Source: Candidatus Omnitrophota bacterium
Lineage (GTDB): Bacteria; Omnitrophota; Gorgyraeia; Gygaellales; Profunditerraquicolaceae
Length of the DNA stretch: 64,000 nucleotides
Reading direction: 5' to 3'
Assembly (NCBI GenBank): GCA_035403145.1
Contig: DAONEO010000004.1
Span: 46,816 to 110,815 of the forward strand
Each line of letters starts with the position of its first letter. Within the stretch, counting starts at the first letter, position 1. The translations under genes and the position numbers were made by a program. The notes below the pieces were generated by a model that had not been told where the DNA came from, did no database searches, and saw nothing but the letters and a program-made list of their open reading frames with translations. Positions 19,196 through 58,144 of the stretch are shown here, one piece after another.

Positions 19196-19268
19196 GGCCT
19201 GTCCCTTAAGGGGCAGGCAATGCCACGGCGACAAAGGGTTTATCCTTAAGGCCGTGGTTTTTTTTGGG
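19196..19268 (+). terminator. Intrinsic terminator candidate: two hairpins followed by a T8 run
   Basis: The first hairpin is CCTGTCCC-TTAA-GGGGCAGG and the second is GCCACGGC...GCCGTGG, immediately followed by TTTTTTTT at 19258-19265. Confidence 0.5.
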
Positions 19269-19277
19269 AGATACGTA

Positions 19278-19688
19278 ATGCGGGATCTTTCCAACAGGCT
19301 TCCATTTGAAGACAGGCGGCGTTTTCAGCGATTGAGCGTCAATATTACGGTTTTCTTCCAGATCGAAGAGCCGGGTGATCTGCGCCAAACCATTGGTTCT
19401 CAGGAAATTGAAGCAACGACCGTTAATATCAGTGAAGGAGGTATGGCCTTTATAACGCGCCATAACTTGCCTGCCTGGACAAAGCTCGCCGTTAAGTTTT
19501 ACCTTTTTAAAAGCGGTATGAGCCGCGGGATTTTGCGTTTTATGAAGCCAGTTCGTATTGCCGCGGAAGTCCGGACAAATCTTGCTCTTGAAATGAATGA
19601 ATATCGAGTCGGTGTCAGTTTTAAGGATGTCAGTCCCGTTGATCAAGAGCGCTTGAGCGCTTTCTTCCGGTCAGTATCGTGTAACTAG
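19278..19688 (+). CDS. PilZ domain protein (second paralog)
   Basis: DRRRFQRL is the RxxxR motif and NISEGGMAF is the xxSxxG motif. A GGGAGA RBS lies 7 nt upstream of ATG 19278. The ORF opens at 19254, inside the terminator. Confidence 0.55.
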   Translation: MRDLSNRLPFEDRRRFQRLSVNITVFFQIEEPGDLRQTIGSQEIEATTVNISEGGMAFITRHNLPAWTKLAVKFYLFKSGMSRGILRFMKPVRIAAEVRTNLALEMNEYRVGVSFKDVSPVDQERLSAFFRSVSCN

Positions 19689-19810
19689 TTTCTGTCCGAG
19701 AATCGTAAACCGAATACCGCTTCCCGATGCGAATTCTTTTCTTGCCGGGGTAAATTTTTTATAGTACAATACCTTCATGCACGGGACAATGATAAAGCGA
19801 TAACATGGGA

Positions 19811-26352: not shown

Positions 26353-26493
26353 TTGAGCGCCTGGCTCATTGCGTAGAGGTCATAGGATGTTTTTCGACGG
26401 AGGCTGACCCGCGATTTTAAATTTTACGGTGAGCTATCAGCTACGAGCAATGATCTCAACGCGCAATCAGTATATTACCTAAGGAAGTGCATT

Positions 26494-27756
26494 ATGTTTA
26501 AAAAGAGAAGAGTTGTCGTTACCGGTATTGGCGTTATTTCGCCGAATGGTATTGGGAAAGAAAACGTGTGGAAGTCGATGTCAAACGGTGTTTCCGGCAT
26601 TCGCCGGGTCGATCAATTTGACGTCTCCGTTTTTAATACGAAGATCGCGGCGCAAGTGCTTGATTTTGATCCGTTCAAATTCGGCCTGACGCATGACGAA
26701 GTTATGCGCATGGACCGGTATGTGCAATTCGGCGTCGTAGCCGGTACGATGGCTGTCCAGGACAGCAAAATAGATTTTTCAACGCTTGACCGTAACCGGG
26801 TCGGTGTTTGTTTAGCAAATGCGATCTGCGGGACTAAATATATGGAAGAAGAATTCGCCTTGGTTACCGACGGCGGGAAAAACCCGATTGACCCGGCTCA
26901 GGGCAGACCCGATCTCTATGATGCCGCAATGTTCAATACCCCTTCGATCGAGTTGTCCGCAAAATACAAATTAAACGGTGTTTGTACGACCATCTCAACG
27001 GGATGCACTGCCGGAACAGACGCGATCGGATATGCATTGGAGTCAATCCAAGATGGCGAGCATGATGTGATTATTGCCGGAGCCGCGGAAGCGCCGCTGA
27101 CCCCGATCACGTTTGGTGCATTTGACGTGGTGAATGTTTTGTCTGCTCATAATGATGAACCGCAAAAAGCTTCGCGTCCGTTTGATAATAAACGCGATGG
27201 ATTTGTCCTTTCCGAGGGGGCGGGCGTTTTGATCCTTGAGGAACTGGGACATGCTTTGAAACGCAACGCGCATATTTACGCGGAAGTACTTGGTTTTGGT
27301 ACAAGCTGTAACGCGTTTCACATGACGGATCTACCGGCAGATGGCGGCGCTATGGCCCGTTGTATTAAACTTGCGCTTGACGACGCCTCCATGAAACCCG
27401 CGGAGATCGAGTATATCAGCGCGCATGGTTCATCAACACGTATGAATGATATTTTTGAAACAGCCGCCTATAAAATGGTCTTTGGAGAGCATGCCTATAC
27501 GATTCCTATCAGTTCGTTGAAATCAATGATCGGGCATCCTTTGGCGGCGTCCAATGCTGTGGAGTTAACGGTTTGCATGATGATTTTTCAGAATAATCTC
27601 TTGCCTCCGACGATAAATCAGGAAGAAAAAGATCCTTTGTGCGATCTCGATTATATTCCGAATGTCGCCCGCAGCAAGAAAGTCAATACGATTATTAAAA
27701 CGAGCAGCGGTTTTTCGGGGATTCATTCGTCATTAATTATGAGGCGGTACTCATGA
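26494..27756 (+). CDS. Beta-ketoacyl synthase, KS-alpha (FabF/type II PKS KS)
   Basis: The active-site Cys lies in TISTGCTAGTDAIGYA, and the two His lie in YISAHGSST and KSMIGHPLAAS. Confidence 0.85.
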   Translation: MFKKRRVVVTGIGVISPNGIGKENVWKSMSNGVSGIRRVDQFDVSVFNTKIAAQVLDFDPFKFGLTHDEVMRMDRYVQFGVVAGTMAVQDSKIDFSTLDRNRVGVCLANAICGTKYMEEEFALVTDGGKNPIDPAQGRPDLYDAAMFNTPSIELSAKYKLNGVCTTISTGCTAGTDAIGYALESIQDGEHDVIIAGAAEAPLTPITFGAFDVVNVLSAHNDEPQKASRPFDNKRDGFVLSEGAGVLILEELGHALKRNAHIYAEVLGFGTSCNAFHMTDLPADGGAMARCIKLALDDASMKPAEIEYISAHGSSTRMNDIFETAAYKMVFGEHAYTIPISSLKSMIGHPLAASNAVELTVCMMIFQNNLLPPTINQEEKDPLCDLDYIPNVARSKKVNTIIKTSSGFSGIHSSLIMRRYS

Positions 27757-27965
27757 ACCCCGCATCTTCAATATGTTCCACAAGGTACCATGGTTACTTG
27801 TTGCAGGGCCAGCGCAAGGGTATTTCTTTTGAAGATGCCCCAAAATATGAGGAATCCCTTCAATCAAGTGGTAAGGCATATAGTCTTTTAAAGAAAAGAA
27901 TTCATACAAGTTTTGACCAATTACCGTCTTCACCTATGAATACTTTGGAGGTGCAGGGTGGATAA
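27753..27965 (+). CDS. Small 70-aa ORF translationally coupled between the KS-alpha and KS-beta genes, hypothetical
   Basis: Its ATG overlaps the KS-alpha TGA as ATGA, and its stop overlaps the KS-beta GTG start by 8 nt. No motif was recognised. Confidence 0.35.
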   Translation: MNPASSICSTRYHGYLLQGQRKGISFEDAPKYEESLQSSGKAYSLLKKRIHTSFDQLPSSPMNTLEVQGG

Positions 27966-29184
27966 GATAGCAATTACCGGATTTGGGATTGTGGCGCCAA
28001 GCGGCATCGGGCGCAGGCAGTTCTGGGCTAACATTAAAGCAGGCAGGTCGTTTGTCAAGAAAGTCACTCGCTTTGATTCTTCCAAATATCAGACGCAGAT
28101 TGCAGGGCAGATCGATGACCTGGAGAAATATTCCACGTTCTCTGAGCGGCTGTTAAAAAAGATCGATACGTTCTCCCACATGGCCCTGATCGGATCAGAA
28201 ATGGCGATGCAGGATGCCGGTATCGCTATCAAAGAAGAAGATCTTAATCGTGTGGGTATTTTTATGGGTAATGCTATCGGCGGATGGCTTTACGCAGAAA
28301 CCGAATTGCGCGATCTATATCTTGAAGGGCGGGAAGGGGTTTCTCCGTATATGGCATCGGCATGGTTCCCCGCTGCTCCGCAAGGACAAGTTTCTATCTA
28401 TTATGGTATTAAGGGTTTTTCAAAAACCGTTGTTTCCGATCGCGCCAGTTCTCTTGATGCTATCGGGTATGCGCGTAAGACGCTGCTTAAAGATAAACTG
28501 AACATGATTTTAGCAGGGGGTACCGAAGCACCTGTTTCTCCCTATGGTTTTTTATGCTGCAATACCTATGGTTGCCTTTCGACGAACAACGCGGATCCCC
28601 GCGGTGCATATCGGCCGTTTGACAAAAAACGCTCTGGTTTTGTAGTTGGCGAGGGCGCAGGGATCATGGTTATGGAGCCTGTGGCGCGCGCTCAGGCTCG
28701 TGGTAAGACGCCGATCGGGTTTATTTCCGGTTATGGCACAACCTGCGACGGAGTCTCCCGGCTGGATCCTGATCCGTCTGGCGATCAATTGTGCAGGGCT
28801 ATTACCATTGCCTTAGAAGACGCGGGACTTTCTGCGCGTGATATTGATTATGTTTCTTTGGACGGTTTAGCGGTTGATATCTGGGATACAAGTGAAGTTG
28901 CGGGGCTGAAGAAAGCTTTGGGGAAACATCTTGAAAAGATCCCGGTGAGCTGCCCAAAATCAATGTTTGGGAATTTACTTGGTGCTTCAAGCGCGGTTGA
29001 CGTGATCATCACGTTGTTGGCAATGGAAAATAATTTAATTCCCCCGACTATTAATTTAGAGGTTCCTGATCCGAACGGCTTGAATTATGTCATAGGAGAG
29101 GCCCAGGAATTTACTGTAAACAAGGCATTAGTTATTGCCCGCGGCAGAGGCGGGATTAATTCTGTATTGGTGATAGAAAAATAA
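27958..29184 (+). CDS. KS-beta / chain-length-factor-like ketosynthase paralog lacking the catalytic triad
   Basis: The protein has KS thiolase fold homology throughout. The Cys position reads TVVSDRASSLDAIGYA, so Cys is replaced by Arg. The His positions read VSLDGLAV, with His replaced by Asp, and KSMFGNLLGASSA, with His replaced by Asn. A GTG start follows a GGAGGTG RBS. Confidence 0.75.
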   Translation: MDKIAITGFGIVAPSGIGRRQFWANIKAGRSFVKKVTRFDSSKYQTQIAGQIDDLEKYSTFSERLLKKIDTFSHMALIGSEMAMQDAGIAIKEEDLNRVGIFMGNAIGGWLYAETELRDLYLEGREGVSPYMASAWFPAAPQGQVSIYYGIKGFSKTVVSDRASSLDAIGYARKTLLKDKLNMILAGGTEAPVSPYGFLCCNTYGCLSTNNADPRGAYRPFDKKRSGFVVGEGAGIMVMEPVARAQARGKTPIGFISGYGTTCDGVSRLDPDPSGDQLCRAITIALEDAGLSARDIDYVSLDGLAVDIWDTSEVAGLKKALGKHLEKIPVSCPKSMFGNLLGASSAVDVIITLLAMENNLIPPTINLEVPDPNGLNYVIGEAQEFTVNKALVIARGRGGINSVLVIEK

Positions 29185-29257
29185 GTTGTCGATGGACCAT
29201 AGGCTATAGTCTATAGACCCCGAGTAATACACGTATCTATAAGGAGGAGGAAAAAGC

Positions 29258-30718
29258 ATGAAGATCTTATTTGTAATGCCTAAAGTCGGTGCCTGGGCAA
29301 CACACGGAAAACATCTCGGACCGAACCAGCTTTACGCGCATTGGGCAGCATATGTCCGCGAAAAAGGATATGCGGATGTTGAAGTCCTTGATTGTAAGGC
29401 CCTTGATATAGAGATGGACCAGATGGTTGAAACGGTTAAATCAAAAAAGCCCGATGTCATTGTTATGGGTGAGCAGTTACATTCATACGGCGGCTACGCA
29501 GTTGTCGCGCATTTTAACGATACGGCTAAACGCATTAAAGCGGCATATCCGGCGGGAACGATTGTTTTCGGCGGTCTCTGGTATTCTGCTATGCCGACCG
29601 AGACCCTTGCGGCAAACCCTGCGGTTGACTACGTGGTTATGGGCGAAGAAGAATCTTTTTACGATCTGATCAATGCCATTGATACAAAGAAGAACATGAA
29701 AGATGTCGCTGGGGTTACCAGCCGCATCGGCAGCGAGATTGTTATGGGACCGTACAAGCCTCTTTTAATGGATCTGGATTCTCTTCCGCTTCCGGCATAC
29801 GACCTTTTTCCGATGGATAAATACGTAGGGCATACGTTCTGGAAGCCGTTTGTAGAGTTGGTTACCAGCAGAGGTTGTCCTTCGGCATGTACGTTCTGTT
29901 ATGAATGGGATCAGTATGATCCCCGCAATCCCGGTGATTTCTTGAAATGGCGGTCGAAGAGCCCGGAACGCGTTATTGAAGAGTTGAACCTTTTGCATAA
30001 AAAATACGGTGTTAAAGTGGTGGTTTTGCAGGATGATAATTTTAACGTTAATCCCGCGCGCGTCAAGAAGTTTTGCGAATTGAAAAAAGCCAGCAATAAT
30101 CCGATCAAGTGGGTTTCGCTCGGACGTGCGGTGGACTGGATCAATTGCGAATCGATCCTGCCGCTTATGAAAGAAACGGGATTATTTACCGGTGTTTTCG
30201 GGATTGAAGTTACGACCCCCGAAGAGCTGAAGAAGATCGCTAAGGGTATTACCGTTGAGCAGATCATGAAGACGGTCGAAATTTTGCGTAAAAACAATAT
30301 CGCCGTTGTCGCCGATATCATGATGGGGTTTGATTATGACGATGAAGCGGTTATCAAACAGCGTTATGAATTCACCGATATGGTTGATCCGGATATTCTC
30401 TGGATCGGGTATGTTACGCCGGCACCCAACTCACCGATGTGGAAGATGGGGTTGAAGAAAAAATGGATCGATCCGACAAAGATCGATTTCGCGCGCTGGG
30501 ATTTCCTGCATCCGGTTATGCCGACAGACCACTTAACCATCGAAGACCTGGGCCGCCTGGGTTCTTGGTGTATGCGTGAATTCTTCTCAAAACCAGGCCG
30601 TATCAACCGTATTATGGAGACAGATTTCGATATATTGGCAAAACTTTGTTTCCAGGATGTTATGGCTGGTGTCGGCAAGTGGGAGGCAGGCGCCACAAAA
30701 GGCGAAGTTCATATTTGA
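29258..30718 (+). CDS. Cobalamin-binding (class B) radical SAM enzyme
   Basis: The N-terminal B12-binding domain reads MKILFVMPK...DVIVMGEQLHSYG. The radical SAM cluster motif is VTSRGCPSACTFCYE, a CxxxCxxC. Confidence 0.75.
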   Translation: MKILFVMPKVGAWATHGKHLGPNQLYAHWAAYVREKGYADVEVLDCKALDIEMDQMVETVKSKKPDVIVMGEQLHSYGGYAVVAHFNDTAKRIKAAYPAGTIVFGGLWYSAMPTETLAANPAVDYVVMGEEESFYDLINAIDTKKNMKDVAGVTSRIGSEIVMGPYKPLLMDLDSLPLPAYDLFPMDKYVGHTFWKPFVELVTSRGCPSACTFCYEWDQYDPRNPGDFLKWRSKSPERVIEELNLLHKKYGVKVVVLQDDNFNVNPARVKKFCELKKASNNPIKWVSLGRAVDWINCESILPLMKETGLFTGVFGIEVTTPEELKKIAKGITVEQIMKTVEILRKNNIAVVADIMMGFDYDDEAVIKQRYEFTDMVDPDILWIGYVTPAPNSPMWKMGLKKKWIDPTKIDFARWDFLHPVMPTDHLTIEDLGRLGSWCMREFFSKPGRINRIMETDFDILAKLCFQDVMAGVGKWEAGATKGEVHI

Positions 30719-30812
30719 AATTGGGCAGCGGTTTTCGGTTAACGGTTATCGGTGTGCGCCGGTTCGACGCCCACCGGTACCGGAACATCGCTTGCTGAAG
30801 AAGGAGGAAATA

Positions 30813-31049
30813 ATGGATGTTAAAGCAGTTGCCAGAAATACGCTGGTTCAGCTTTTGAAAATCAAACCGGAAGAATTGAAAGATGATGTGCAGCTGACGA
30901 ACGGCATTGGCGTAGACTCGACAGAGATGGTGGAATATTGTATTGCGCTTGAAAAAGCGTTTAATACAAAAATAAGCCCCAAAGAGATTACCAAATACTC
31001 CACGATCAATGAGATCGAGCAAATTGTAAAGGCAAAGCTGAACTTTTAG
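30813..31049 (+). CDS. Acyl carrier protein
   Basis: The 78-aa protein carries LTNGIGVDSTEMVEY with the phosphopantetheine Ser in DS. A GAAGGAGG RBS lies 5 nt upstream of ATG 30813; the ORF-track frame opens at 30576. Confidence 0.8.
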   Translation: MDVKAVARNTLVQLLKIKPEELKDDVQLTNGIGVDSTEMVEYCIALEKAFNTKISPKEITKYSTINEIEQIVKAKLNF

Positions 31050-31059
31050 AAGGGGGATC

Positions 31060-31860
31060 TTGATGAAGATCGTTGATTTAAGTCTTCCTATTGATGAGCG
31101 GGCACCCGAAGTGCATCCGATGTGGATTGATCGCCTGGGGCATAAAGAAGGCGTTCGTCATATTAACTGGGTGATGATGAAACATACCCTGAAAGGGAAA
31201 ATCGAATTCTTTTTGGGGAAGCGCATTATTGAGCCGTCACATTTGCCGGATGGGGAATTCCTCTCACTTGAAACCGTGCATTGCCCGGTGCATATCGGCA
31301 CGCATATTGATTTCTCATTCCATTACGGGACGCAGTCGCAAGGCCGCCCTTCAAAACCGATCATTGAACTTCCGCTTGAATGGTGTTACGCGGATGCGGT
31401 TGTTTTGAATTTTACGCACAAGAAACCGGGAGAAGTCATCTCCAAAGATGACGTTGTGCAGGCATTAGTTAAAGTCAAGTATGCTATAAAACCCAACGAC
31501 ATTGTTTTATTACATACCGGCGCCGATCAATATTTCGGGACGCGGGAATATCTGACGAATTATCCCGGAGTTTCGCCGGAGGCTATCGCCTATATTCTTG
31601 ATCATAACGTTCATATCATCGGAGTTGACTCGCTTGGTTTTGACCGGCCGTATAAATACATGATGGCTGATTTCCATAAAACCAAAGATGGCTCGGTTCT
31701 CTGGCCGGCGCATTTTTACGGCCGCAAACAGGAGTATGCGCATATCGAACGATTGACGAATTTAGGAAAATTACCGGCGCATGGCTTTAAAATCCAGTGT
31801 TTCCCGATCAAGATCCTTGATTGCGGAGCTGCCTGGTCGCGCGTCGTTGCGTTTGTGTGA
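31060..31860 (+). CDS. Putative cyclase family protein (PF04199, kynurenine formamidase-like fold)
   Basis: HCPVHIGTHIDFSFH is the HxGTHxD metal-binding motif typical of this family. A GAAGGGGG RBS precedes the start. Confidence 0.65.
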   Translation: MMKIVDLSLPIDERAPEVHPMWIDRLGHKEGVRHINWVMMKHTLKGKIEFFLGKRIIEPSHLPDGEFLSLETVHCPVHIGTHIDFSFHYGTQSQGRPSKPIIELPLEWCYADAVVLNFTHKKPGEVISKDDVVQALVKVKYAIKPNDIVLLHTGADQYFGTREYLTNYPGVSPEAIAYILDHNVHIIGVDSLGFDRPYKYMMADFHKTKDGSVLWPAHFYGRKQEYAHIERLTNLGKLPAHGFKIQCFPIKILDCGAAWSRVVAFV

Positions 31861-32177
31861 TGAGAAAAATTTATCCGGTTATCGAAGATCTCGATGCGTT
31901 GATGGAATTTCCCCGGCAGGGAGTTTTCAGTAAGGTTTTAGCAAAGACTCCCGGTTCGAATTATACGCTTATGTGCCTTGCTCAGGGAAGCGATATATCG
32001 GAACATACCTCAACGCGTGAAGCGGCAGTAATCGTATTAAAAGGTACAGGCGTATTCATGCTTGGCAGGAAAAAGATCGTTATGAAACCGGGCGTTTTTA
32101 TCTTTATGCCGAAGAATGCGCCGCATAGTTTAAGTGCGGATGAAAATTTGGCTATTGTGTTGAGTATATTTGGATAA
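31860..32177 (+). CDS. Cupin domain protein (TcmJ-like small cupin)
   Basis: The roughly 105-aa protein reads ...EHTSTREAAVIVLKGTGVFMLGRKKIVMKPGVFIFMPKNAPHSL, a two-motif cupin. Its ATG overlaps the upstream stop as TGATG. Confidence 0.6.
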   Translation: MRKIYPVIEDLDALMEFPRQGVFSKVLAKTPGSNYTLMCLAQGSDISEHTSTREAAVIVLKGTGVFMLGRKKIVMKPGVFIFMPKNAPHSLSADENLAIVLSIFG

Positions 32178-32270
32178 TTTGTTAGGTTTTCGGTTTGCGG
32201 TGTTCGGTTAGCGGCGTATTCCCGAAAACCGATAACCGTTCACCGATAACCAAGGAAGACGAGGTGCCTT

Positions 32271-32711
32271 ATGGGTCATACATGTAACTCAATTATCATA
32301 AACGCTCCGTATGAAAAAGTTTTTGATATTTCCAACGATATCCCCCGCTGGACCGAACTTTTTGGCGGCGAGTATAAAAAAGCGGAAATTATACGTAAAG
32401 AAGGCAATACGATTACGTTTCGTCTTACTGATGATGAAAATCAGTCCTGGGTATCATGGAGACTTCTTTTGAAAGATAAGAATTTAGCGTATGCCGAGCG
32501 CCAGGAGCCGAAATTTCCCTTCCGGTATATGAAAATTGTCTGGCTCTACACGCAGAAGCCGCAGGGTGTTGAATTGACCTGGATCCAGCATTTCGAGATG
32601 GATGAAAAAGCGAAATTCAACGATGAACAGGTTGAAGGGTTTATTAATAAACATTCCAAAGATAATTTGAAGATATTCAGGGATGCAATAGAGAAGGCTG
32701 CCCGGGAGTAA
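32271..32711 (+). CDS. SRPBCC-superfamily polyketide cyclase/aromatase-like protein (TcmN/Bet v1-like)
   Basis: The 146-aa protein begins ...CNSIIINAPYEKVFDISNDIPRWTELF, typical of the Polyketide_cyc2 fold. The assignment is by fold-level motif only. Confidence 0.55.
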   Translation: MGHTCNSIIINAPYEKVFDISNDIPRWTELFGGEYKKAEIIRKEGNTITFRLTDDENQSWVSWRLLLKDKNLAYAERQEPKFPFRYMKIVWLYTQKPQGVELTWIQHFEMDEKAKFNDEQVEGFINKHSKDNLKIFRDAIEKAARE

Positions 32712-32807
32712 TTTCAATGGCATCACGTCACACTGGTATCAAAAAAGCTTTTACTTGTGGCGGTGTGATCTGTGCCTTTGTGACATCGCATTGTCGTTCT
32801 TTGAGTA

Positions 32808-33929
32808 ATGAATAAGCGAACATTTTTTCTACTCTGCCTTGAAGGCGCGTTGTTATCATTCAATGTTGCTGCTTCAGCGGCACTGGTTCCGTCAATTGCC
32901 GCAGAATTCGGGGTTTCGCAGTTTATCGCCGGCAGGATCATCTGGCTCTATATGCTTCCCTATGGTCTGGCCGCGCTTTTCTATGGCCCGCTTATCAGGG
33001 CGATTGACGCCAAGAAAGTGGAACTTGTTTGTCTGATCCTATTTTCATTGGCAAATCTGCTGGTGGGAGTTTCGAATAGTATCGGAATGCTTTTTGCGGG
33101 TAGACTGCTGATGGGAGTATTTGGCGCATCCGTTATTCCGTTGGGAATAATTCTTATCGGTCGGCATATAACGCCTCTTCGCCGCGGCAGGGCAGTCGGT
33201 ATTTTCTTCGGCGGCACGTTTAGTGCCTCTCTTGCGGGGCTTGTTTTAAGCGGTATTATACCCTGGCGTTTGATTTATATTGCTCCGGCAATTGCCGGGT
33301 TTATTCTTGTGATTTTTTTATGGATTTACCTGCCGAGTTTTCAGCAGGATGTTACGCGATTTAGTTGTAACTATCGTAAGGTATTTGCTAACGCGAACGT
33401 TGCGCGTGTATTTCTGTATATATTTCTTATCAGCATTTTTTATCACGGCGTACAGCAATGGCTGGCGGTGTATTTTTCAAAGAAATTCGGATTCAGCCAG
33501 TTTGTTATCAGTATGCTGGTTATGGCAACGAGTTTGAGCGGTATTTTCGGCGAAGTCATCGGTGGTTTTTGCGCCGATACGCTGGGCCGTATCAAGACCG
33601 CCAATATCGGCTCTTTGATTATGATTCTTACCGTTGCCGCGGTCCTTATGAAGCTGCCGCTTGCGGTGATTGGTATAGTGATGCTTGCCTGGGGATTCGG
33701 CTGGACATTGAATCACGCGGGAATTTCCACGATTTTAACTGATTTACCGCATGATCATCTGCATGAATCAGCGAGTTTAAACAGTAGCCTGCGCTTTATT
33801 GCCGGCGGTATAGGGGCTGCGTGGGGCGGATATTTGATGCAGTTCGATATTCATTTGGGTTTTATTGTGTTTGGTGTGTGTGTAGCCGGATTATTGGTTT
33901 GTACGAAGCCGTTACTGAAGAAGGCCTAG
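32808..33929 (+). CDS. MFS transporter
   Basis: Twelve TM segments are predicted, and GRLLMGVFGASVIPLG plus a ...RRGRAVGIFF loop motif after TM2 are MFS signatures. Confidence 0.75.
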   Translation: MNKRTFFLLCLEGALLSFNVAASAALVPSIAAEFGVSQFIAGRIIWLYMLPYGLAALFYGPLIRAIDAKKVELVCLILFSLANLLVGVSNSIGMLFAGRLLMGVFGASVIPLGIILIGRHITPLRRGRAVGIFFGGTFSASLAGLVLSGIIPWRLIYIAPAIAGFILVIFLWIYLPSFQQDVTRFSCNYRKVFANANVARVFLYIFLISIFYHGVQQWLAVYFSKKFGFSQFVISMLVMATSLSGIFGEVIGGFCADTLGRIKTANIGSLIMILTVAAVLMKLPLAVIGIVMLAWGFGWTLNHAGISTILTDLPHDHLHESASLNSSLRFIAGGIGAAWGGYLMQFDIHLGFIVFGVCVAGLLVCTKPLLKKA

Positions 33930-33946
33930 AAGAAAGGAAGATACGC

Positions 33947-34723
33947 ATGAGTATAGAATTAAAAGGTAAGATAGCGATTGTTACAGGCGCCAGCCGCGGG
34001 ATAGGAAAAGCTTTGGCATCAACGGTAGCAAGTATGGGCGCCAATGTTGTGATTGCCGCTCGTCAGGAAGGCCCTTTACAAGAAACCGCACAAGAGCTTA
34101 AAAATAAATACAAGGTTGAGGTCCTCCCGGTTGTGTGCGATGTTACGAAGCTGGAAGACCTGGAGAACCTGGTGAATCAGACAAAAAAGAAATTCGGCAA
34201 ACTTGATATTCTGATTAATAACGCAGGTGTTTCCAGCCAGTATCCTTTTGAGAAACAGCCGATCGAAGACATTGAAAAACTCGCATATACCAATTATCTT
34301 GGATATGTCCGGTTGATCCGTCTGGTGATCAATGATTTTATCGCCCAGAAATCGGGTGCTATCATTAATATGGTTTCAGGCTCAACTCTGTGCGATCCGC
34401 TTCCCAGGACGTTTGTTGTGTATAGCTCGCTGAAGGTTGGTTTGCGCGCCTTCTGTAAAGGACTTTTCTGGGAATTACGCGATCATGGTATTAAAATTAC
34501 CTCGCTTTTGCCCGGGGTTACCGACACCGATTTAACCGGTAAATTAAAAGAAGTTACCGGTGATACGTCGAGGCTGATGTCCACCGAAGCTATTGAAAAT
34601 GCGGTGCGTTTTGCATTGACGGTGCCGCACAATGTCTGCCCGCTCGAAATAGCCATTATTAATCAGCAGACGCCGTGGACAGCGCCGGTCATTCCGTTTA
34701 AGCAGGAGCATCCGGAGAAGTAA
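33947..34723 (+). CDS. SDR-family oxidoreductase (ketoreductase-like)
   Basis: KIAIVTGASRGIGKA is the TGxxxGxG motif, followed by NNAG and the catalytic YSSLK (YxxxK). The ORF track opens at 33821, but ATG 33947 follows a GAAAGGAAG RBS. Confidence 0.8.
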   Translation: MSIELKGKIAIVTGASRGIGKALASTVASMGANVVIAARQEGPLQETAQELKNKYKVEVLPVVCDVTKLEDLENLVNQTKKKFGKLDILINNAGVSSQYPFEKQPIEDIEKLAYTNYLGYVRLIRLVINDFIAQKSGAIINMVSGSTLCDPLPRTFVVYSSLKVGLRAFCKGLFWELRDHGIKITSLLPGVTDTDLTGKLKEVTGDTSRLMSTEAIENAVRFALTVPHNVCPLEIAIINQQTPWTAPVIPFKQEHPEK

Positions 34724-34820
34724 GGTTCCATGGTTTGCTGCGAGTCGTCTGGAGTGCGTTTTGAGTAAAAACAATCGGCCTGATCAGGGTACAAGCTATT
34801 CTCTAGCATGGAGGAGTCCA

Positions 34821-35429
34821 ATGAAAAAATTACTATTTGCGTTCAGTCTTGTTGTTGTATGTGCGGCATGGGCGTTTGCTGCTGAAAAGAGTGTTCAACT
34901 TGATGATTTTGAAGGGGTAATTTCCGGCGGTGCTGAGGGTACGGTTGATTTTGGCGCTGGTAATGGTTCGGCGGTAGAAGTAACGGCAACACCTGAACAG
35001 GCGCATGGCGGGAAGCAATCTTTGAAGGTTGTCTATGATGCGGTTTCCGGCGGATACATGTATATTGCCAAAGGTACAAAACTGGACGCCAAGAAAGCTG
35101 ATTGGAAGGTTAAGCCTGAGGATGTGAATTGGAAAGAATTTAACGCGATCTCTGTTTGGGTTTTTGGCGCTGATTCCAAAGAAACGGTGGCAATCGATGT
35201 GAAAGATAATGGCGGAGAAATTTGGCGCTCGACCTTTGTCGATGATTTTAAAGGATGGAAACAAATTGCGATTTTATTTAATGAGTTCAAGGCGCGCGAT
35301 GATTGGCAGCCGGATAGCGCGGATAAAAACGGCACGCTTGATTTTCCGGTCAGAAGTTACCAATTCGAACCGCTGACACCGGGCAAAGGTGTTTTATATT
35401 TCGACGATGTTGAGATAATTCAAAAATAG
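34821..35429 (+). CDS. Secreted beta-sandwich protein (CBM11/CIA30-like carbohydrate-binding-type domain)
   Basis: A signal peptide MKKLLFAFSLVVVCAAWAFAA is followed by LDDFEG...W...YFDDVEI, a pattern reminiscent of CIA30/CBM11 domains. A GGAGGAG RBS precedes the start. Confidence 0.4.
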   Translation: MKKLLFAFSLVVVCAAWAFAAEKSVQLDDFEGVISGGAEGTVDFGAGNGSAVEVTATPEQAHGGKQSLKVVYDAVSGGYMYIAKGTKLDAKKADWKVKPEDVNWKEFNAISVWVFGADSKETVAIDVKDNGGEIWRSTFVDDFKGWKQIAILFNEFKARDDWQPDSADKNGTLDFPVRSYQFEPLTPGKGVLYFDDVEIIQK

Positions 35430-35447
35430 CCGGAAGGGGAGACGACT

Positions 35448-35849
35448 ATGGCAAAAAAATGCGACTATAAGAATCTTCATAAGCGGTATCTGATATGGCT
35501 TTATAAAACCACCCAGGAACAGGTGGATACGGTAGAGCGGAAATTTTCCCAGCTTGAGATTGATGAGATGATTATCGAGCAGATCAAGAAGTTTGATAAA
35601 GAAAAGAAGCTTGAAACGTATAGTGATGAGTTTAAAACGTATATTGATAACAAGAAAAAGAAAGGGTTGGAGCTTAAATTCGACGGTCTTGAAGTAAAAC
35701 CGGAGTTCCAGTTCCTTGTATACAAGTTGGCTGCTATTGAGGTTTTGATTGTTAAGGAGTTTGGTGAAGTTGCGTTGCAGGAAATAAAATGTGCTTATGA
35801 AGAAGAAATGATCAGGCGGATTTTAGCTGAACGGGAAGAAAAGCGTTGA
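35448..35849 (+). CDS. Hypothetical protein
   Basis: A 133-aa charged helical protein with no recognised motif. It has an RBS and overlaps the next gene by 4 nt. Confidence 0.4.
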   Translation: MAKKCDYKNLHKRYLIWLYKTTQEQVDTVERKFSQLEIDEMIIEQIKKFDKEKKLETYSDEFKTYIDNKKKKGLELKFDGLEVKPEFQFLVYKLAAIEVLIVKEFGEVALQEIKCAYEEEMIRRILAEREEKR

Positions 35850-36763
35850 TGATCGTTGACGCGCACAGCCATTGGCTGCCGAATGAGATTATCACCAATG
35901 CCCATTTTTATCATACGGGCTGGGGTGATATTGAGGCTCAGGTCAAGATGATGGATGAGGCGGGGATTGCGCAGGCGGTTTTGTCGTATCCGACATCAGA
36001 TGCGCATCTGAAGCTTGGCGGTCTTGCGCAGGTCAGCACAATTTTTAATGATAACGTTGCTGCAATTATAAAACGATATCCGAAACGATTTATCGGCGCG
36101 GCGATTCTTCCGGTCGGGAATGCCGATATGATGCTTCGGGAGTGGTACCGGGCGCGTGATGTAGGCTTCCAGGCAATCTCTCTTGCCACCAGCTATGAGG
36201 GGAGATATCTTGACGATAAAGAATTCATCCCGCTTTATCAAGAAGCGCAGGCGCATTCAATACCCATCTTCGTGCATCCCCAGATTGTTAATCCGATCGG
36301 TTTTGAGCGGGTGCAGGATCCTTTATTGACCCCGGTGATCGAGTATGTTTTTGATACGACTATTTGTATCGGTAAATTGATGATGTCGGGAGTCCTTGAT
36401 GAGTATCAGGAAGTCAAATTTGTTTTTGCTTATTTCGGCGGGGCGATACCGTTTTTAGCGCATCGCTTTGACGCGACGTATCAAATGTTGCGCTCGATTA
36501 ATTTCGTGAAAGATCTCAGAGTTGACCCGACGGTATTGTTAAAACGCGTGTATGTTGATACCAGCGGTGATACAACACAGGCGAATTTAGAGGCGGCACG
36601 CGTATTATTTGGGACAAAACATCTTGTGTGGGGAAGCGACTGGCCTGCGAAAAAAAATATTGGAGGTTCCATCCAAGCGATCAGTGATTTGGATTTAACG
36701 CCGGAAGAGAAAGACGGGATATTAGGCGGGAATCTGATGCGGTTGTTTACGGATGGAGGGTAG
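35846..36763 (+). CDS. Amidohydrolase-2 family metal-dependent hydrolase/decarboxylase (ACMSD/LigI-like)
   Basis: MMIVDAHSHW starts with the HxH metal motif at the N-terminus. ...FVHP, ...HLVWGSDWP and the overall TIM-barrel pattern fit PF04909. Confidence 0.65.
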   Translation: MMIVDAHSHWLPNEIITNAHFYHTGWGDIEAQVKMMDEAGIAQAVLSYPTSDAHLKLGGLAQVSTIFNDNVAAIIKRYPKRFIGAAILPVGNADMMLREWYRARDVGFQAISLATSYEGRYLDDKEFIPLYQEAQAHSIPIFVHPQIVNPIGFERVQDPLLTPVIEYVFDTTICIGKLMMSGVLDEYQEVKFVFAYFGGAIPFLAHRFDATYQMLRSINFVKDLRVDPTVLLKRVYVDTSGDTTQANLEAARVLFGTKHLVWGSDWPAKKNIGGSIQAISDLDLTPEEKDGILGGNLMRLFTDGG

Positions 36764-36764
36764 A

Positions 36765-37493
36765 ATGCGTATGGGGAAGCGCATCATGTTAGGCAGTTGT
36801 TTGTTTTGGCTGGGGTTTATGAGTTGTGTTTTGGCGGAAGTTCCTACCTATAAAGGATTCCCCGTGTATCCGGACAGCTCTATAGATACGGTTGCACGAG
36901 AGGGCAATGATGAATTCACCACGAAAGAGGTATGTACAGCCGCGAATAAAGAGTCGAAGAACAAAGCTGCCGAGAAATATATAATGGATAATGCCGTAGC
37001 ATTGGGCTGGCGATTTATCCGCAAACAAGCTTATGAGTGCCCATGCCACGGGTTGGTTTTTGGCAAAGTCGATACGAAGGCCCATTACGTAGAAGTAATG
37101 TTTGAAGATGGCGGATTTGAAATAGACGATCCATTCCAAAAAAAGACTGTCCTTGATTTTGTAAAGCCTGTTGAGAATTCGATTAAATATAAATTCAGGG
37201 AGCATGGTTTACCGATATTGTATGAAGGCTTTCCTTTGGCATATAATACAGCAGATAGCTCTTTGTTTAATCGAATCAATACAGAAGAGGGAGTTGTTAT
37301 GGAGGCGTCTGCTGATTATAATGATCCCTCTGGCGTTCGATTCGATTATGATCTTCCCGAATTATATGGCTGGGAAAAAAAGGCATCTAGTGATTTTGTA
37401 TTCTCTGAAGCTACCTATACAAAGAATGGCGTGCGGGTGAAAACGTCTGTAAAAAATAGTAAGATTAGCATTGTTTTCTATAACCAGCCTTAA
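36765..37493 (+). CDS. Secreted protein, hypothetical
   Basis: A signal peptide MRMGKRIMLGSCLFWLGFMSCVLA is present, with no recognised domain. Confidence 0.4.
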   Translation: MRMGKRIMLGSCLFWLGFMSCVLAEVPTYKGFPVYPDSSIDTVAREGNDEFTTKEVCTAANKESKNKAAEKYIMDNAVALGWRFIRKQAYECPCHGLVFGKVDTKAHYVEVMFEDGGFEIDDPFQKKTVLDFVKPVENSIKYKFREHGLPILYEGFPLAYNTADSSLFNRINTEEGVVMEASADYNDPSGVRFDYDLPELYGWEKKASSDFVFSEATYTKNGVRVKTSVKNSKISIVFYNQP

Positions 37494-37628
37494 TCATTTA
37501 TGTATGGAGATGGAAGAGAAAGACGGGATATTAGCAATAAATTAGGTTTACGGTTTTCGGTTAACGGTTAGCGTCGGAATTTGCGCCGAACGCTGCTAAC
37601 AGGAGTTACTATTAAGGAGAAGAGACAT

Positions 37629-38378
37629 ATGCAAATGCAAAAAGATGTTCATATGACCGGAAAAGATTTGACAGCGATGGTGCAGCTGAGGCCGCAGGAT
37701 GTGGGTTCGTACGCGATCGTCCCCGGGCCGCGCGACAGACTGGATGTTCTCATGAAAAAGATCGAGAATCCGGTGCGTAATTTCTCTTTCATGGAATATA
37801 CGATGTATACCGGCACCTTCGAGGGAATCAAAGTGACGGGTATTAACGGCGGCCGGTTTTCGACGGATACTTCAATTACCTCGGAAGTTATGTGTAATGC
37901 CGGGATCAAGAATATCATCCGCATCGGTTCGTGCGGATCTCTTGATGAGAATATCCAAATCGGCGATTTGTTTATTGTAGATTCGGTTATCCGCGGTGAT
38001 GGAGTGACCCCGTATTACGTGAAACCGGATTTCAAAACTGTGGCCGATAAGAAAATATCGGATACCATGTTTGGCATAGCGCACGACATGGGATTAAAGG
38101 TGCACCGCGGTGTTGCCTGGACAACAGACGCTTTATTGCGTGAAACCCGGGAGATTGTCGAGGCAAAACGTACAGAAGGAGCCCAGGTTGTTGATATGGT
38201 TTCTTCAACGCTTTTAACGATTGCACAGACATATCATGTTAAAGCCGGCTCAATCCTGGCGGTGAGTGATAATGTTGTTACCGGTGAAATGGGATTTATG
38301 AATCCCCTGTATTACATGGCCGAGACGAATTTGATAAAAATAGCGCTTGAGACGGTTAAGAAACTGGAAGGCAAATAA
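37629..38378 (+). CDS. Purine/uridine nucleoside phosphorylase family (PNP_UDP_1) enzyme, candidate 5'-deoxyadenosine/MTA phosphorylase
   Basis: VPGPRDRLDVL and RIGSCGSL are motifs of the PNP/UDP/MTAP fold. An AAGGAGA RBS lies 8 nt before ATG 37629; the ORF opens at 37581. Confidence 0.6.
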   Translation: MQMQKDVHMTGKDLTAMVQLRPQDVGSYAIVPGPRDRLDVLMKKIENPVRNFSFMEYTMYTGTFEGIKVTGINGGRFSTDTSITSEVMCNAGIKNIIRIGSCGSLDENIQIGDLFIVDSVIRGDGVTPYYVKPDFKTVADKKISDTMFGIAHDMGLKVHRGVAWTTDALLRETREIVEAKRTEGAQVVDMVSSTLLTIAQTYHVKAGSILAVSDNVVTGEMGFMNPLYYMAETNLIKIALETVKKLEGK

Positions 38379-38477
38379 ATGGTCGATGGACGATAGCCAA
38401 TGGACGATGGTAAAGCCTAAATACAATCAAGGGTTTTAACAATTGACTATTGACCATAGACTATAGACTGCGAAGCT

Positions 38478-46718: not shown

Positions 46719-47042
46719 CTAAAAATCCTCTCTAAAGTAGAAAGAAATCAATAAAAAGTGGAAGTAAGAGCTTTACCATTGTTTAATTTCTTAGTACAAT
46801 AACACAATTACTTACCTTATATACTAAAATAGTTCGTGGGGCATTGTTCATTGATCGTATCCCTTTTTAGTCGTGCCTACAGCAGACAGGTGATTTTAAA
46901 ACCCGTAGTTTTTTGTTACGAAGCATCCCTTTCTGACGTAACACCTATGAGCTATCAGCTATGAGCCGTGAACTAAATAGTTGATTTAGGTAAGGCGCTA
47001 TACTACACTAAGAGGTATCTTTTTTTACAGGAGGATTCCTGG

Positions 47043-49988: not shown

Positions 49989-50002
49989 GAAAGGAGCTAC
50001 CT

Positions 50003-50455
50003 GTGGTTAAGAAAAATTATATTCTCCTTATTGAAGATAGCTTGGATGATGCGACACTTATTGAGCGGTCGTTTCTGAAAAATAATATCCAGAATGAAAT
50101 AGTCCATTTGACTGATGGCGCTCAGGCAGTTGATTACATAACATGCCAGGGGCAGTATGCCGGGCGTGACCAGTATGAAATACCGATGTTAGTTCTACTT
50201 GATTTAAAACTGCCTAAACGCAATGGGGTTGAAGTTTTAAGAGTTATACGCGCCTGCGAGCATACAAAATTACTGCCTGTGGTGATCCTTACTTCGTCCA
50301 AAGAAGAGCAGGATGTTGTTAACGGCTATACCAATGGCGCTAATAGTTTTGTCCGTAAGCCGGTAGCATTTGAGGATTTTGCCAAGGCAGTGCAAACGCT
50401 TGGCTTGTATTGGTTGTTGTTAAATGAGTCACCCCCGCAATGCAAGAAGGAGTAA
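50003..50455 (+). CDS. Stand-alone response-regulator receiver domain protein
   Basis: ILLIEDSLDD...LVLLDLKLPKRNG...ILTSS...K is a REC fold with the conserved Asp/Lys. No output domain is present. Confidence 0.75.
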   Translation: MVKKNYILLIEDSLDDATLIERSFLKNNIQNEIVHLTDGAQAVDYITCQGQYAGRDQYEIPMLVLLDLKLPKRNGVEVLRVIRACEHTKLLPVVILTSSKEEQDVVNGYTNGANSFVRKPVAFEDFAKAVQTLGLYWLLLNESPPQCKKE

Positions 50456-50457
50456 CT

Positions 50458-51564
50458 ATGGCTATACCGTTGAATGTTTTAATGGTTGAAGATTCTGAAA
50501 ATGACGCCGCGTTAATCATTCGCGAACTCTCCAAAGGGGGTTTTGTTCTCTCCTGTGATCGCGTTGAAACTGCCGAGGCAATGGAGAATGCCCTTTCCCG
50601 GAAATGCTGGGATTTGATTATCGCCGACTATAAAATGCCCCGTTTTAGCGGGCTTGAAGCGATCCTTCTGGCAAAAGAGAAAGATCCTGCGATGCCGGTT
50701 ATTATTACTTCGGGAACGGTAGGCGAAGATGTTGCGGTTGAGACGATTAAAGCCGGGGCTAATGATTATCTTCTTAAGGGGAACCTTATTCGTTTGATAC
50801 CTGCCGTGCAGCGGGCTTTGCGTGAAGCGCATATGACCAGGGAACATAAAGAAATGCAAGAAGAGATTGTGCGTTCGAATACCGAATTACAGCAATTCGC
50901 CTATTCTCTTTCCCATGATTTACAGGAGCCGTTGCATATGGTTGTTAGTTACATGCGTTTATTAAGCCAGCGGTATAAGGGAAAGTTCGACACGGATGCC
51001 GATGAGTTCATCGATTTTGCGGTTGCCGGGGGGACGCGTATGCAGGAGATGATCAACGGGCTTCTGGAATATTCCCGGATACATACCAGGGGCGAGAAAT
51101 TTATGCATATTGATACCGAGGCCGCTTTACTGAGCGCGTTAGAAAATTTGCGTTTTATGATCCAGGATGCGCATGCGGTTATTACCCATGATCCCTTGCC
51201 TCTGGTGTGGGGAGATGCAACTCAGCTGACGCGTGTTTTTCAGAATCTTATCAGTAATGCTATTAAATTCAAGGGTGCGCAACCGCTGGTAATACATGTT
51301 GCGTGCGCCGAAAAAGATACTGAGTACGTTTTTAGCGTGCAGGATAATGGTATCGGCTTGGCGGTAGAATTTCAAGAGCGCATTTTTGGGTTTTTCCAGA
51401 GATTACACGGGAATAGTTATGCCGGAGTCGGTATCGGGCTTGCTATTACCAAGCGTATTATTGAACGCCATGCCGGCCGTATCTGGGTTGAATCCCTGCC
51501 GGATAAAGGGTCAACATTCTTCTTTAGTATCCCTGTGCAACCAAAGGAGACAGCGACAACGTGA
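50458..51564 (+). CDS. Hybrid REC-HisKA-HATPase histidine kinase
   Basis: The N-terminal REC contains ADYKMP and the H-box reads FAYSLSHDLQEPLHMV. The HATPase motifs are QDNGIGL...GVGIGLAI. An AAGGAG RBS precedes ATG 50458. Confidence 0.8.
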   Translation: MAIPLNVLMVEDSENDAALIIRELSKGGFVLSCDRVETAEAMENALSRKCWDLIIADYKMPRFSGLEAILLAKEKDPAMPVIITSGTVGEDVAVETIKAGANDYLLKGNLIRLIPAVQRALREAHMTREHKEMQEEIVRSNTELQQFAYSLSHDLQEPLHMVVSYMRLLSQRYKGKFDTDADEFIDFAVAGGTRMQEMINGLLEYSRIHTRGEKFMHIDTEAALLSALENLRFMIQDAHAVITHDPLPLVWGDATQLTRVFQNLISNAIKFKGAQPLVIHVACAEKDTEYVFSVQDNGIGLAVEFQERIFGFFQRLHGNSYAGVGIGLAITKRIIERHAGRIWVESLPDKGSTFFFSIPVQPKETATT

Positions 51565-56564: not shown

Positions 56565-56588
56565 GATGCTCGTAAAGGAGGGATCCAC

Positions 56589-56981: not shown

Positions 56982-57013
56982 CGGTATCAAACTGACAACG
57001 AGGAAAATCGAAA

Positions 57014-58061: not shown

Positions 58062-58144
58062 TGCTGGAGGAGGGAGTTGAACCCTCACGGGCGTGAACCC
58101 ATCGGTTTTTGAGACCGACATGTATGCCATTCCATCACTCCAGC
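58062..58144 (-). tRNA. tRNA-Leu(CAA), class II with a long variable arm, no encoded CCA
   Basis: Manual fold of the minus-strand sequence. The acceptor is GCTGGAG/CTCCAGC plus discriminator A. The D-arm contains GG. The anticodon stem TCGGT/ACCGA encloses the loop CTCAAAA, giving anticodon CAA. The variable arm reads TCAC-GCCC-GTGA. The T-arm is GAGGG-TTCAACT-CCCTC. Confidence 0.7.

Follow-up and report, generated by a model that had tools for sequence, protein, structure and literature searches.

The 64,000-nt stretch of Candidatus Omnitrophota DNA analysed here (contig DAONEO010000004.1 of assembly GCA_035403145.1, positions 46,816 to 110,815 of the forward strand; hereafter the window) contains, between a cupin gene (31821-32177) and a gene for an SRPBCC polyketide cyclase (32271-32711), an imperfect palindrome of 67 nt at 32185-32251, which is here called site B. 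The two genes lie in a co-directional run encoding KS-alpha, KS-beta, a B12-radical-SAM protein, an ACP, a cyclase, the cupin, the SRPBCC protein, an MFS protein and an SDR protein, and the gene calls at the locus agree with independent calls on identical metagenome contigs. An earlier note, made from the letters of the window, had described an imperfect CGGT/ACCG palindrome at this place and labelled its neighbours as cupin and SRPBCC genes; both labels are correct and the palindrome is present, starting one base before the position 32186 given there. Site B ends 9 nt before the Shine-Dalgarno sequence of the SRPBCC gene and 19 nt before its ATG, and the hairpin predicted for it covers neither the cupin stop codon nor this Shine-Dalgarno sequence, which is separate and intact (Table 1).

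The two arms of site B are 30 nt each, with a complementarity of 73% and a separation of 7 nt in the repeat search, and Tandem Repeats Finder (TRF) assigns both of them a period of 7 with 4.3 copies. The heptamer unit is built as CGGTNNN in one arm and NNNACCG in the other, i.e. a CGGT core followed or preceded by three variable bases, and registers shifted by 7 nt offer alternative pairings, with 78% complementarity over 23 nt and 88% over 16 nt. RNA folding of the intergenic transcript, which the earlier note had proposed as a check, returns a strong hairpin: positions 32178-32273 fold at -36.7 kcal/mol (z = -3.86), none of 200 dinucleotide shuffles is as stable, and the spacer folds most strongly among the 21 folded intergenic gaps of the window. 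The predicted fold comprises a short apical stem and four helices of 4-6 bp, formed by the CGGT/ACCG cores; the variable positions give rise to 1x1 or 2x2 internal loops between the helices, and there is a single G-U pair. The motif CGGTNNNCGGTNNNCGG, with at most one mismatch, is found 15 times in the window compared to 0.77 times expected, a number that none of 100 shuffles reaches, and runs of at least three exact CGGT-heptamers occur four times compared to 0.09 in shuffles. The motif count and the fold statistics together establish that the palindrome is real and far beyond chance; site B is a genuine heptamer palindrome with strong statistics.

Table 1. Positions of the parts of site B, of the flanking translation signals and of the other CGGT-family copies in the window.
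Feature	Positions	Strand	Description
Left arm, site B	32185..32214	+	GGTTTTC GGTTTGC GGTGTTC GGTTAGC GG; 4.3 heptamers of type (C)GGTNNN
Loop, site B	32215..32221	+	CGTATTC, 7 nt
Right arm, site B	32222..32251	+	CCGAAAA CCGATAA CCGTTCA CCGATAA CC; 4.3 heptamers of type NNNACCG, complementary to the left arm
Cupin stop codon	32175..32177	+	TAA; 7 nt before site B
SRPBCC Shine-Dalgarno and start codon	32261..32273	+	GAGGTG (32261-32266) and ATG (32271-32273); unpaired with the hairpin
Site A, CGGT family	30729..30795	+	Upstream of the ACP gene; CGGTTTT CGGTTAA CGGTTAT CGGTGTG, then a degenerate right arm (..CACCGGTACCGGAACATCG)
Site C, CGGT family	37544..37605	+	Upstream of the PNP_UDP_1 gene; left array AGGTTTA CGGTTTT CGGTTAA CGGTTAG CG
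Site D, CGGT family	19696..19726	-	Lone degenerate array; ACCG type on the sense strand

Other recognisable signals were sought in and around site B. A promoter and terminator consensus scan gave no promoter-like or terminator-like site at 32185-32251. The hairpin is followed immediately by AAGGAAGACGAGG, which contains no U-tract of the kind seen in intrinsic terminators, and an intrinsic terminator is ruled out on this ground. Rfam gave no match in 32100-32350 even at E <= 1, and two tRNAs only in the whole window at the gathering threshold.

Matches to CGGTNNNCGGTNNNCGG are confined to four places in the window, namely 19696-19726 on the minus strand, 30729-30759 and 37544-37574 on the plus strand, and 32184-32252 on both strands, and the CGGT family is accordingly represented by four copies, sites A to D. 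Sites A and C have an exact 20-mer in common, and A, B and C can be aligned in register with their orthologues in the unit order GGTTTn, CGGTTnn, CGGTnnn, CGGTTAG-CG, loop, ACCG units. This shared order of units and the 20-mer of A and C imply that the three sites would be copies of one element and not independent expansions. At all three, 54-57 nt separate the left array's end from the start codon. The right arm of site C, decayed in this genome, consists of intact ACCG heptamers at locus L088 and is two heptamers (14 nt) shorter at L010 and L084; arrays A and B display no special conservation. Site D starts 8 nt past the stop codon of a PilZ gene (19254-19688, plus strand) and is situated outside the cluster of polyketide synthase (PKS) genes.

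The frequency of such arrays was determined in a comparison set consisting of the window and the best 80 of 154 genome stretches with SRPBCC relatives (1.19 Mb in total), in which the SRPBCC proteins are 72-90% identical and nearly all sequences are labelled Omnitrophota or are metagenome-assembled genomes (MAGs) misfiled as Planctomycetales. TRF arrays of at least three copies number 104 for period 7, compared to 7, 5, 9 and 8 for periods 6, 8, 9 and 10, and 96 of the 104 (92%) are intergenic, though intergenic DNA makes up about 8% of the sequence. Copy number peaks at 4-5 (58 of the 96 intergenic arrays), and 55-66 of the 96 have an inverted partner within 150 nt, compared to five in a reverse-only control, with lone arrays that have no partner making up about a third of the total. 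The paired arrays resolve into 41 hairpin elements, 38 of them between co-directional genes; the median distance is 5.5 nt from the preceding stop codon to the element and 18 nt from the element to the following start codon. Within the heptamers, four positions are 91-99% conserved and paired in 83-98% of cases, compared to 61-79% and 45-59%, respectively, for the three variable positions, and it is exactly this architecture that is seen at site B.

The same preference is visible in the spacers as a whole. For the 219 co-directional gaps between 50 and 220 nt long, z < -2 is reached by 58% and z < -3 by 45%, compared to 7% and 3% of length-matched coding controls; z-scores from our own scripts were computed with mononucleotide shuffles. 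Excess self-identity in these gaps is found at lag 7 alone among lags 4-11, and the signal is strong in 50 gaps compared to 8-14 at the other lags tested. The cores themselves are diverse, with at least three unrelated ones in the window (CGGT, ATGG/CCAT and AGCTAT) and dozens across the phylum, and the compositional bias of the left arms in Omnitrophota is weak. Judged by this census, site B is an ordinary member of a very common class of elements in Omnitrophota.

The two further heptamer families of the window were also located. The ATGG/CCAT family forms an inverted pair at 38379-38469 (ATGGTCG ATGGACG ATAGCCA ATGGACG ATGG and TTGACTA TTGACCA TAGACTA TAGACT, with a 34-nt spacer), which begins immediately past the stop codon at 38376-38378, leaves 9 nt to the next ATG and folds at -25.7 kcal/mol (z -3.3), and a lone array of this type (TCGATGG ACCATAG GCTATAG TCTATAG) is located at 29188-29218, upstream of the radical SAM gene. 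The AGCTAT family (AGCTATG/AGCTATC) is found at 46945-46966, at 63513-63539 and at about 26425-26445, and its core AGCTATC ... AGCTGAA recurs as inverted pairs at L031, L033, L061, L069 and L078.

The earlier note had regarded conservation in orthologous clusters as decisive, and here the outcome went against it. Three contigs of this species, recovered from different samples, have site B at 100% identity, and it is present in the sister species, where the SRPBCC protein is 90% identical, with about 13 substitutions and indels over the 94-nt spacer. Six of the changes in the sister species fall in the arms; several break pairs and none is compensatory, nor was any compensatory change found among the orthologous copies of site B, and the sister-species copy folds at -25.8 kcal/mol (z = -0.57), like shuffled sequence. 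Beyond this pair of species, in which it is represented by the window and L084, the element is missing: L088, the next relative (88% identical), has a cupin-SRPBCC gap of 15 nt, and L089 has no cupin gene and an unrelated GC-rich spacer. In 28 of 78 orthologous clusters the SRPBCC gene is preceded by less than 40 nt, and in 44 by 40-400 nt; of the latter, 21 fold at z < -3 and eight are heptamer-periodic, with unrelated sequences. This distribution among relatives makes site B a lineage-specific gain, and other palindromes have been gained at the same junction by other lineages. A phase-variable contingency locus was considered and rejected, as the length of the element is invariant in the three contigs of this species and in four of the sister species, drawn from different samples.

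Palindromes of other families are also present at the junctions of this operon, at L088 4450-4515, at about 4440-4470 of L089 and, upstream of the SRPBCC gene, at L035 and L058. The ACP gene of L088 is preceded, at 4450-4515, by a perfect stem of 23 bp, CCACCACAACCTCGTAGGTTGCA ... TGCAACCTACGAGGTTGTGGTGG, and a hairpin of the type GGGACTGTCCCC ... GGGGACTGTCCC recurs in at least three genomes at the same operon junctions. The spacer between the SRPBCC and MFS genes (32712-32807) holds another hairpin, GUCACACUGG ... CGGUGUGAU, with no heptamer period (-27.8 kcal/mol, z -2.5 to -3.4), and thus adjacent junctions each have their own palindrome.

Turnover of the elements was followed by anchoring on the coding flanks of each element and looking for filled and empty counterparts, of which many were found. 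A single junction with flanks 87-92% identical is occupied by an ATAGTCC palindrome in L023, by palindromes of AAATCAC type in L076 and of GTAGAGG type in L041 and by a GCGGATA element in L078, and is empty in L069. L076 and L078 have the 130-nt AAATCAC element in common at about 93% identity, but at different junctions with unrelated flanks, and the L078 site is empty in L069 with a flank 94% identical. In an AATGTCA/TTTGACA palindrome of two close genomes (L015 5290-5416 and L020 9035-9137), an 18-nt indel in the left arm is mirrored in the right arm, which indicates that both arms change length together. Such observations are signatures of copy-and-paste or templated elements, and slow drift in place would not produce them. 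For the AAATCAC family they document that whole elements are copied to new junctions; for the CGGT family such copying is suggested by the shared order of units. A parent autonomous element was sought in the 64-kb window, and none was found.

The window does contain a candidate mobile system of a known type. An ORF of 216 aa at 62313-62963 on the plus strand resembles genes for transposases associated with repetitive extragenic palindromic (REP) sequences, termed RAYTs; its product matches Pfam PF01797 Y1_Tnp (IS200-like) with 33.9 bits and NCBIfam REP_Tyr_transpos with 60.4 bits, the latter being below the cut-off of 80. It is flanked by a GTAG-type REP, CACCCCGTAGGTGT, at 62198 and 62216 upstream and at 62954 downstream, and the same flanks (62198-62229 and 62954-62985) hold a related palindrome, ACACCCCTGGGGTGT, followed by a G8 run. 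The gene and its flanks look like a classical RAYT/REP system, apparently distinct from the heptamer palindromes. As a mobiliser of the latter it is rejected on present evidence, since the GTAG-type REP that flanks it is absent from the heptamer sites.

Whether the elements are maintained as RNA or as DNA can be approached through their strand symmetry. On the sense strand, the 38 hairpins in co-directional gaps have 58 G-U pairs and 63 A-C mismatches, and their sense and antisense strands are equal in stability (-33.2 and -33.6 kcal/mol). Over all gaps the sense strand is slightly more stable (-28.0 compared to -27.1 kcal/mol, p = 0.008); in the strongly folding gaps the two strands do not differ. 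These comparisons give no sign that pairing is kept up specifically in the transcript, and such symmetry would be expected of a DNA palindrome or of young insertions.

Arrays of the CGGT type are not limited to this phylum and are also encountered in unrelated metagenome contigs outside Omnitrophota. A metagenome scan for CGGTTNNCGGTNNNCGGTTANCG gave at least 120 contigs of 35-73% GC, a result that shows breadth and is not to be read as counts. Among the matches listed, most arrays extend to 4-10 units, and 33 have an inverted partner of ACCG heptamers, with the CGGT arm 5' in all 33, a polarity that is independent of the strand read. The orientation of array and gene shows no preference among the same matches (++ 16, -- 12, +- 12 and -+ 11). 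A fixed sense orientation of lone arrays was considered and rejected, as site D is reversed relative to the plus-strand PilZ gene. The high-GC contigs (64-67%) L103, L111, L137, L141, L162, L184, L191, L193-L195 and L199 hold one large family of such elements with the structure AG-(CGGTTAG CGGTTGG)x2, a spacer of 20-80 nt that often has its own hairpin, and (CCAACCG CTAACCG)x2-CTTC.

We favour, with a probability of roughly 0.55, the reading that site B is a non-autonomous, dispersed palindromic element resembling REPINs (inverted REP doublets) and MITEs (miniature transposable elements with inverted repeats), recent in its spacer, and neither a maintained structure nor a specific regulator of the PKS genes. 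Its two arms, each an array of about 4.3 degenerate heptamers in which four positions are conserved and three are free, would belong to a pool of elements that appear to be acquired, lost and exchanged rapidly where short spacers separate co-directional Omnitrophota genes. The arrival of site B between the cupin and SRPBCC genes would date from the ancestor that this species shares with its sister species. The length changes seen in arms, the two-heptamer indel included, may have come about by replication slippage together with arm-to-arm templating. On mRNA or single-stranded DNA, site B would fold into a hairpin of about 30 bp, with interruptions, that lies past the stop codon and ahead of the following ribosome-binding site; this hairpin is probably a by-product or a generic operon feature. 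Any effect on expression would likewise be generic and without detectable selection at the locus; the hairpin may be imagined to stop exonucleases, to hinder termination of the cupin reading frame, which ends 7 nt upstream, or to uncouple the cistrons on either side.

Several points weigh against this preference. Mobility is inferred from sequence alone, no transposase or mobilising activity has been linked to the heptamer elements, and neither site B nor the AAATCAC element (three junctions) is bordered by a visible target-site duplication. The mirrored indels in the arms and the high share of folding spacers in compact genomes could equally mean selection for a hairpin. Transcription of site B with the operon is likely from its position in the co-directional gene run, and is itself an inference. 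The census is drawn from 80 loci that all surround the same operon, and its genes were called by an approximate heuristic based on open reading frames (ORFs). Lastly, the left array of site C is identical at 29 of 29 positions in four genomes, with flanks about 25% different, and this could hint at a constraint on the sequence, such as binding of a factor, or at conversion between copies.

Selection for a hairpin is the basis of a serious, though less probable, alternative, in which site B is an intercistronic RNA structure acting as generic operon punctuation, blocking 3'-5' exonucleases or protecting the downstream 5' end and thereby setting cistron output; it may also hinder upstream termination, and heptamers would be only one way to build a long interrupted stem. 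The strong fold of site B speaks for this, as do the stereotyped placement of site B and 38 other elements (0-18 nt after the stop codon and 5-30 nt before the start codon), the excess of folding intercistronic gaps (58% with z < -2 compared to 7% of coding controls), the different hairpins at the same junctions in different species, the mirrored indels by which arms stay matched and the better folding of the sense strand over all gaps (p = 0.008). An RNA kept by selection would, however, be expected to leave traces that are missing here: G-U pairs are not in excess over A-C mismatches (58 compared to 63), sense and antisense do not differ in the strongly folding gaps, the sister-species copy of site B has lost its fold without a compensatory change, the right arm of site C has decayed next to an intact left arm, and many orthologous junctions have no spacer at all. 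The asymmetry of site C suits the idea that the array itself is functional, serving in single-stranded RNA or DNA as a platform for a protein whose subunits each cover 7 nt, and for which cold-shock-domain or S1-type oligonucleotide-binding (OB)-fold proteins or a HutP-like ring protein are candidates; its binding would compete with the hairpin and tune the downstream gene. The site C left array, kept at 29 of 29 positions in four genomes while the flanks and right arm drift, the four conserved and three free positions of each unit, the many lone arrays (about a third) and the uniform 54-57 nt from left-array end to start codon at A, B and C all fit such a platform, and one CspB per heptamer, as well as S1, has been proposed for the TAACTGA repeats of Beggiatoaceae (PMC4679880). 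A single sequence-specific binder does not explain at least three unrelated cores in the window and dozens in the phylum, though, and with an orientation that is not fixed (D is reversed and the metagenome arrays are mixed) and no special conservation of arrays A and B we regard the platform as quite unlikely.

The indels in multiples of 7 would also follow if the arrays arose in place by polymerase slippage in a 7-nt register, with the inverted arm added by template switching and with neither transfer nor function. Heptamers are the favoured long repeat in many bacteria, for which a polymerase-footprint hypothesis is relayed in PMC4692102 and PMC4679880, and the lack of length polymorphism within the species points to slowly changing repeats and not to hypermutable contingency loci. 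Independent slippage would not yield the same order of non-identical units at different sites, however, and it accounts neither for unrelated cores replacing one another at one junction in close relatives nor for a CGGT/ACCG polarity fixed at 33 to 0 among the matches listed, which makes an origin wholly in place very unlikely. The two roles suggested in the earlier note are specific to the cluster. As an operator or attenuator of the aromatase gene in the type II PKS-like operon, site B would be suitably located, directly upstream of the SRPBCC gene, and three of the four family copies lie in the cluster region; against this, orthologous clusters do not keep the element (the sister species has a degraded copy, L088 and L089 have none, and less than 40 nt are available in 28 of 78), and it has no terminator tail, promoter or Rfam match and belongs to a family that extends outside both the cluster and the phylum, so a control element of this kind is extremely improbable. 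A multimeric regulator site in particular is at odds with a period of 7 bp, which is not the helical repeat, with the family member beside the PilZ gene, with other families in other spacers and with the occurrence of such arrays in unrelated contigs of 35-73% GC. The suggestion of a long RNA hairpin that insulates translation of the aromatase gene keeps its structural half, the strong predicted fold of -36.7 kcal/mol, and loses the part concerning dedicated control, as the element is restricted to two species. A broader speculation, which we rate as unlikely, is that heptamer palindromes are a distinct class of miniature mobile DNA unrelated to the GTAG-REP/RAYT system, or arrays read by a protein in a 7-nt register that sets the stoichiometry of cistrons throughout the operons of Omnitrophota. 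The grounds for a distinct mobile class are the fixed convergent polarity, the preference for positions after stop codons, the mirrored arm changes and the replacement of families at one junction, and such a class may have an unfamiliar route of propagation, e.g. a hairpin-recognising single-strand transposase or a templated activity that adds 7-nt repeats and copies arms.

The type II PKS-like operon in which site B is situated occupies 26494-37493 and adjoins methionine-salvage-like genes (PNP_UDP_1, IF-2B and class II aldolase). Besides the proteins listed above it encodes a CBM_11-like protein, an amidohydrolase and three conserved proteins that match no Pfam family. Its conservation extends across Omnitrophota, with SRPBCC relatives at 154 genome stretches and 1155 SRPBCC homologues at E <= 1e-40, and a literature search on a PKS-like operon in Omnitrophota found no paper. 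Further downstream, a block of signalling genes at 47043-57391 encodes a dCache-PAS histidine kinase of 981 aa, a hybrid kinase of 1667 aa with a receiver domain, several PAS and GAF domains, another receiver-kinase and three single-domain response regulators. An identical 40-nt stretch, consisting of two 19-nt units GCCGCTCGGCTACGCTCGCTT, is found at 58362-58401 and 58586-58625, 224 nt apart, in a 1.5-kb non-coding region with tRNA genes on the minus strand at 58062-58144 and 58665-58737.

For the PKS-like operon, the consequence of these results is that the palindrome is not a conserved switch and should not guide regulatory models or the calling of cluster boundaries. More generally, in the compact genomes of uncultured Omnitrophota, strongly folding palindromes fill most of the longer intercistronic spacers, about a quarter of them with a 7-nt periodicity, and these elements turn over between close relatives. 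They provide a natural data set on why heptamers are favoured, and on whether paired arrays are mobile DNA, RNA structures or platforms for proteins. Such repeats can also fragment MAG assemblies and mislead motif searches.

Several known regulatory sites share a periodic or heptameric structure with site B. The operators of Streptomyces antibiotic regulatory proteins (SARPs) consist of heptamers at 11 bp spacing, on one face of the helix and upstream of a promoter; a SARP-type operator is ruled out here by the contiguous period-7 units and the lack of a promoter-like site. HutP sites have UAG every 7 nt and TRAP sites have GAG/UAG triplet repeats. A site of either type was likewise rejected, given that the period fits HutP, the core is CGGU and not UAG, and a cognate protein was not found among the ORFs of the window. 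A literature search for repeats in Omnitrophota found nothing, and the comparison is therefore with repeats of other bacteria.

In Escherichia coli, REP sequences and the bacterial interspersed mosaic elements (BIMEs) built from them occur inside operons, e.g. between malE and malF, where they stabilise mRNA 3' ends, and they down-regulate translation if located less than 15 nt from the stop codon. Liang, Rudd and Deutscher are said to have found in 2015 that REPs within 15 nt of the stop codon hinder upstream termination in E. coli. Like these, site B is an intercistronic imperfect palindrome a few nt after a stop codon, in a transcript that is presumably polycistronic. Unlike them, its structure is not kept in the sister species, and it is known from its sequence alone.

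The likeness extends to REPINs, in which two inverted REPs form a hairpin that is mobilised by RAYT transposases, and whose singlets decay (Bertels and Rainey 2011, PMC3116915). Both types have two inverted units with a spacer, able to form a hairpin in single-stranded DNA or mRNA, both are dispersed (the CGGT family with four copies in 64 kb), extragenic and non-autonomous, and in both the doublets are better preserved than singlets, whose decay is seen here at sites A, C and D. A REP unit, according to PMC3733652, is an imperfect palindrome of 20-40 nt with a terminal GTAG or CGTC tag; the arms of site B, in contrast, are non-palindromic tandem arrays of heptamers with neither tag. A further difference is that the only RAYT-like gene of the 64-kb window is flanked by the other repeat, CACCCCGTAGGTGT, and a cognate RAYT was not found there. 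In comparison with MITEs, the arms act as terminal inverted repeats and there is polymorphism of presence and absence (L084 compared to L088, and filled and empty sites in other families), but no target-site duplication was seen at site B or the AAATCAC element, nor a parent element with the same ends in the 64 kb examined.

Heptamer repeats have also been described next to genes in other phyla. TAACTGA heptamers ahead of start codons are known from marine Beggiatoaceae, Cyanobacteria and Bacteroidetes (MacGregor 2015, PMC4679880), those of Beggiatoaceae having been proposed as sites for Csp, S1 or CsrA (PMC4679880), and cyanobacterial short tandemly repeated repetitive (STRR) heptamers are reported by Mazel et al. 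(1990), as quoted in PMC4692102. All of these resemble the Omnitrophota arrays in being short (2-6 heptamers), intergenic, often just upstream of start codons and sporadic among phyla. The TAACTGA sets differ in that 169 are direct and one is indirect, that one unit is dominant and that they often replace the Shine-Dalgarno sequence, whereas two thirds of the Omnitrophota arrays are inverted pairs of degenerate units and the Shine-Dalgarno sequence is separate and intact.

The closest parallel is found among the heptamers that, according to Mrazek (2007) as cited in PMC4679880 and PMC4692102, form the most abundant class of long simple-sequence repeats in many bacteria, a preference for which slippage over the polymerase footprint was offered, in the same citations, as a hypothesis. 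Rehm et al. (2015, PMC4692102) described (GGGANTN)n arrays in Xanthomonas, mostly of four units and intergenic, with 70-75 convergent inverted pairs per genome, 83% of which hold their position between two species while their lengths vary. The Xanthomonas (GGGAATC)n/(GGGANTN)n arrays and the GGGGA(C/T)T arrays of Nostoc share with the Omnitrophota elements a 7-nt unit with conserved and free positions, about four units per array and an intergenic location; in both groups the arrays are mostly convergent pairs able to form a stem-loop or cruciform, either strand may be the transcribed one, and sister species often have arrays at the same position that differ in length and sequence. The Omnitrophota elements differ in their host, in having many unrelated cores per genome, in the apparent copying of fixed-order elements to new junctions, where they replace one another, and in the CGGT core, which has two G in a row only and does not allow a G-quadruplex; the latter is ruled out by sequence, as four tracts of at least three G would be needed and each unit offers only GG. 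Site B has all the features of paired inverted heptamer arrays, i.e. a 7-nt tandem unit, an intergenic position, heterogeneous units with a conserved core, about four units and convergent arms. The class is thus already known in outline from other bacteria, and site B is a new member of it.

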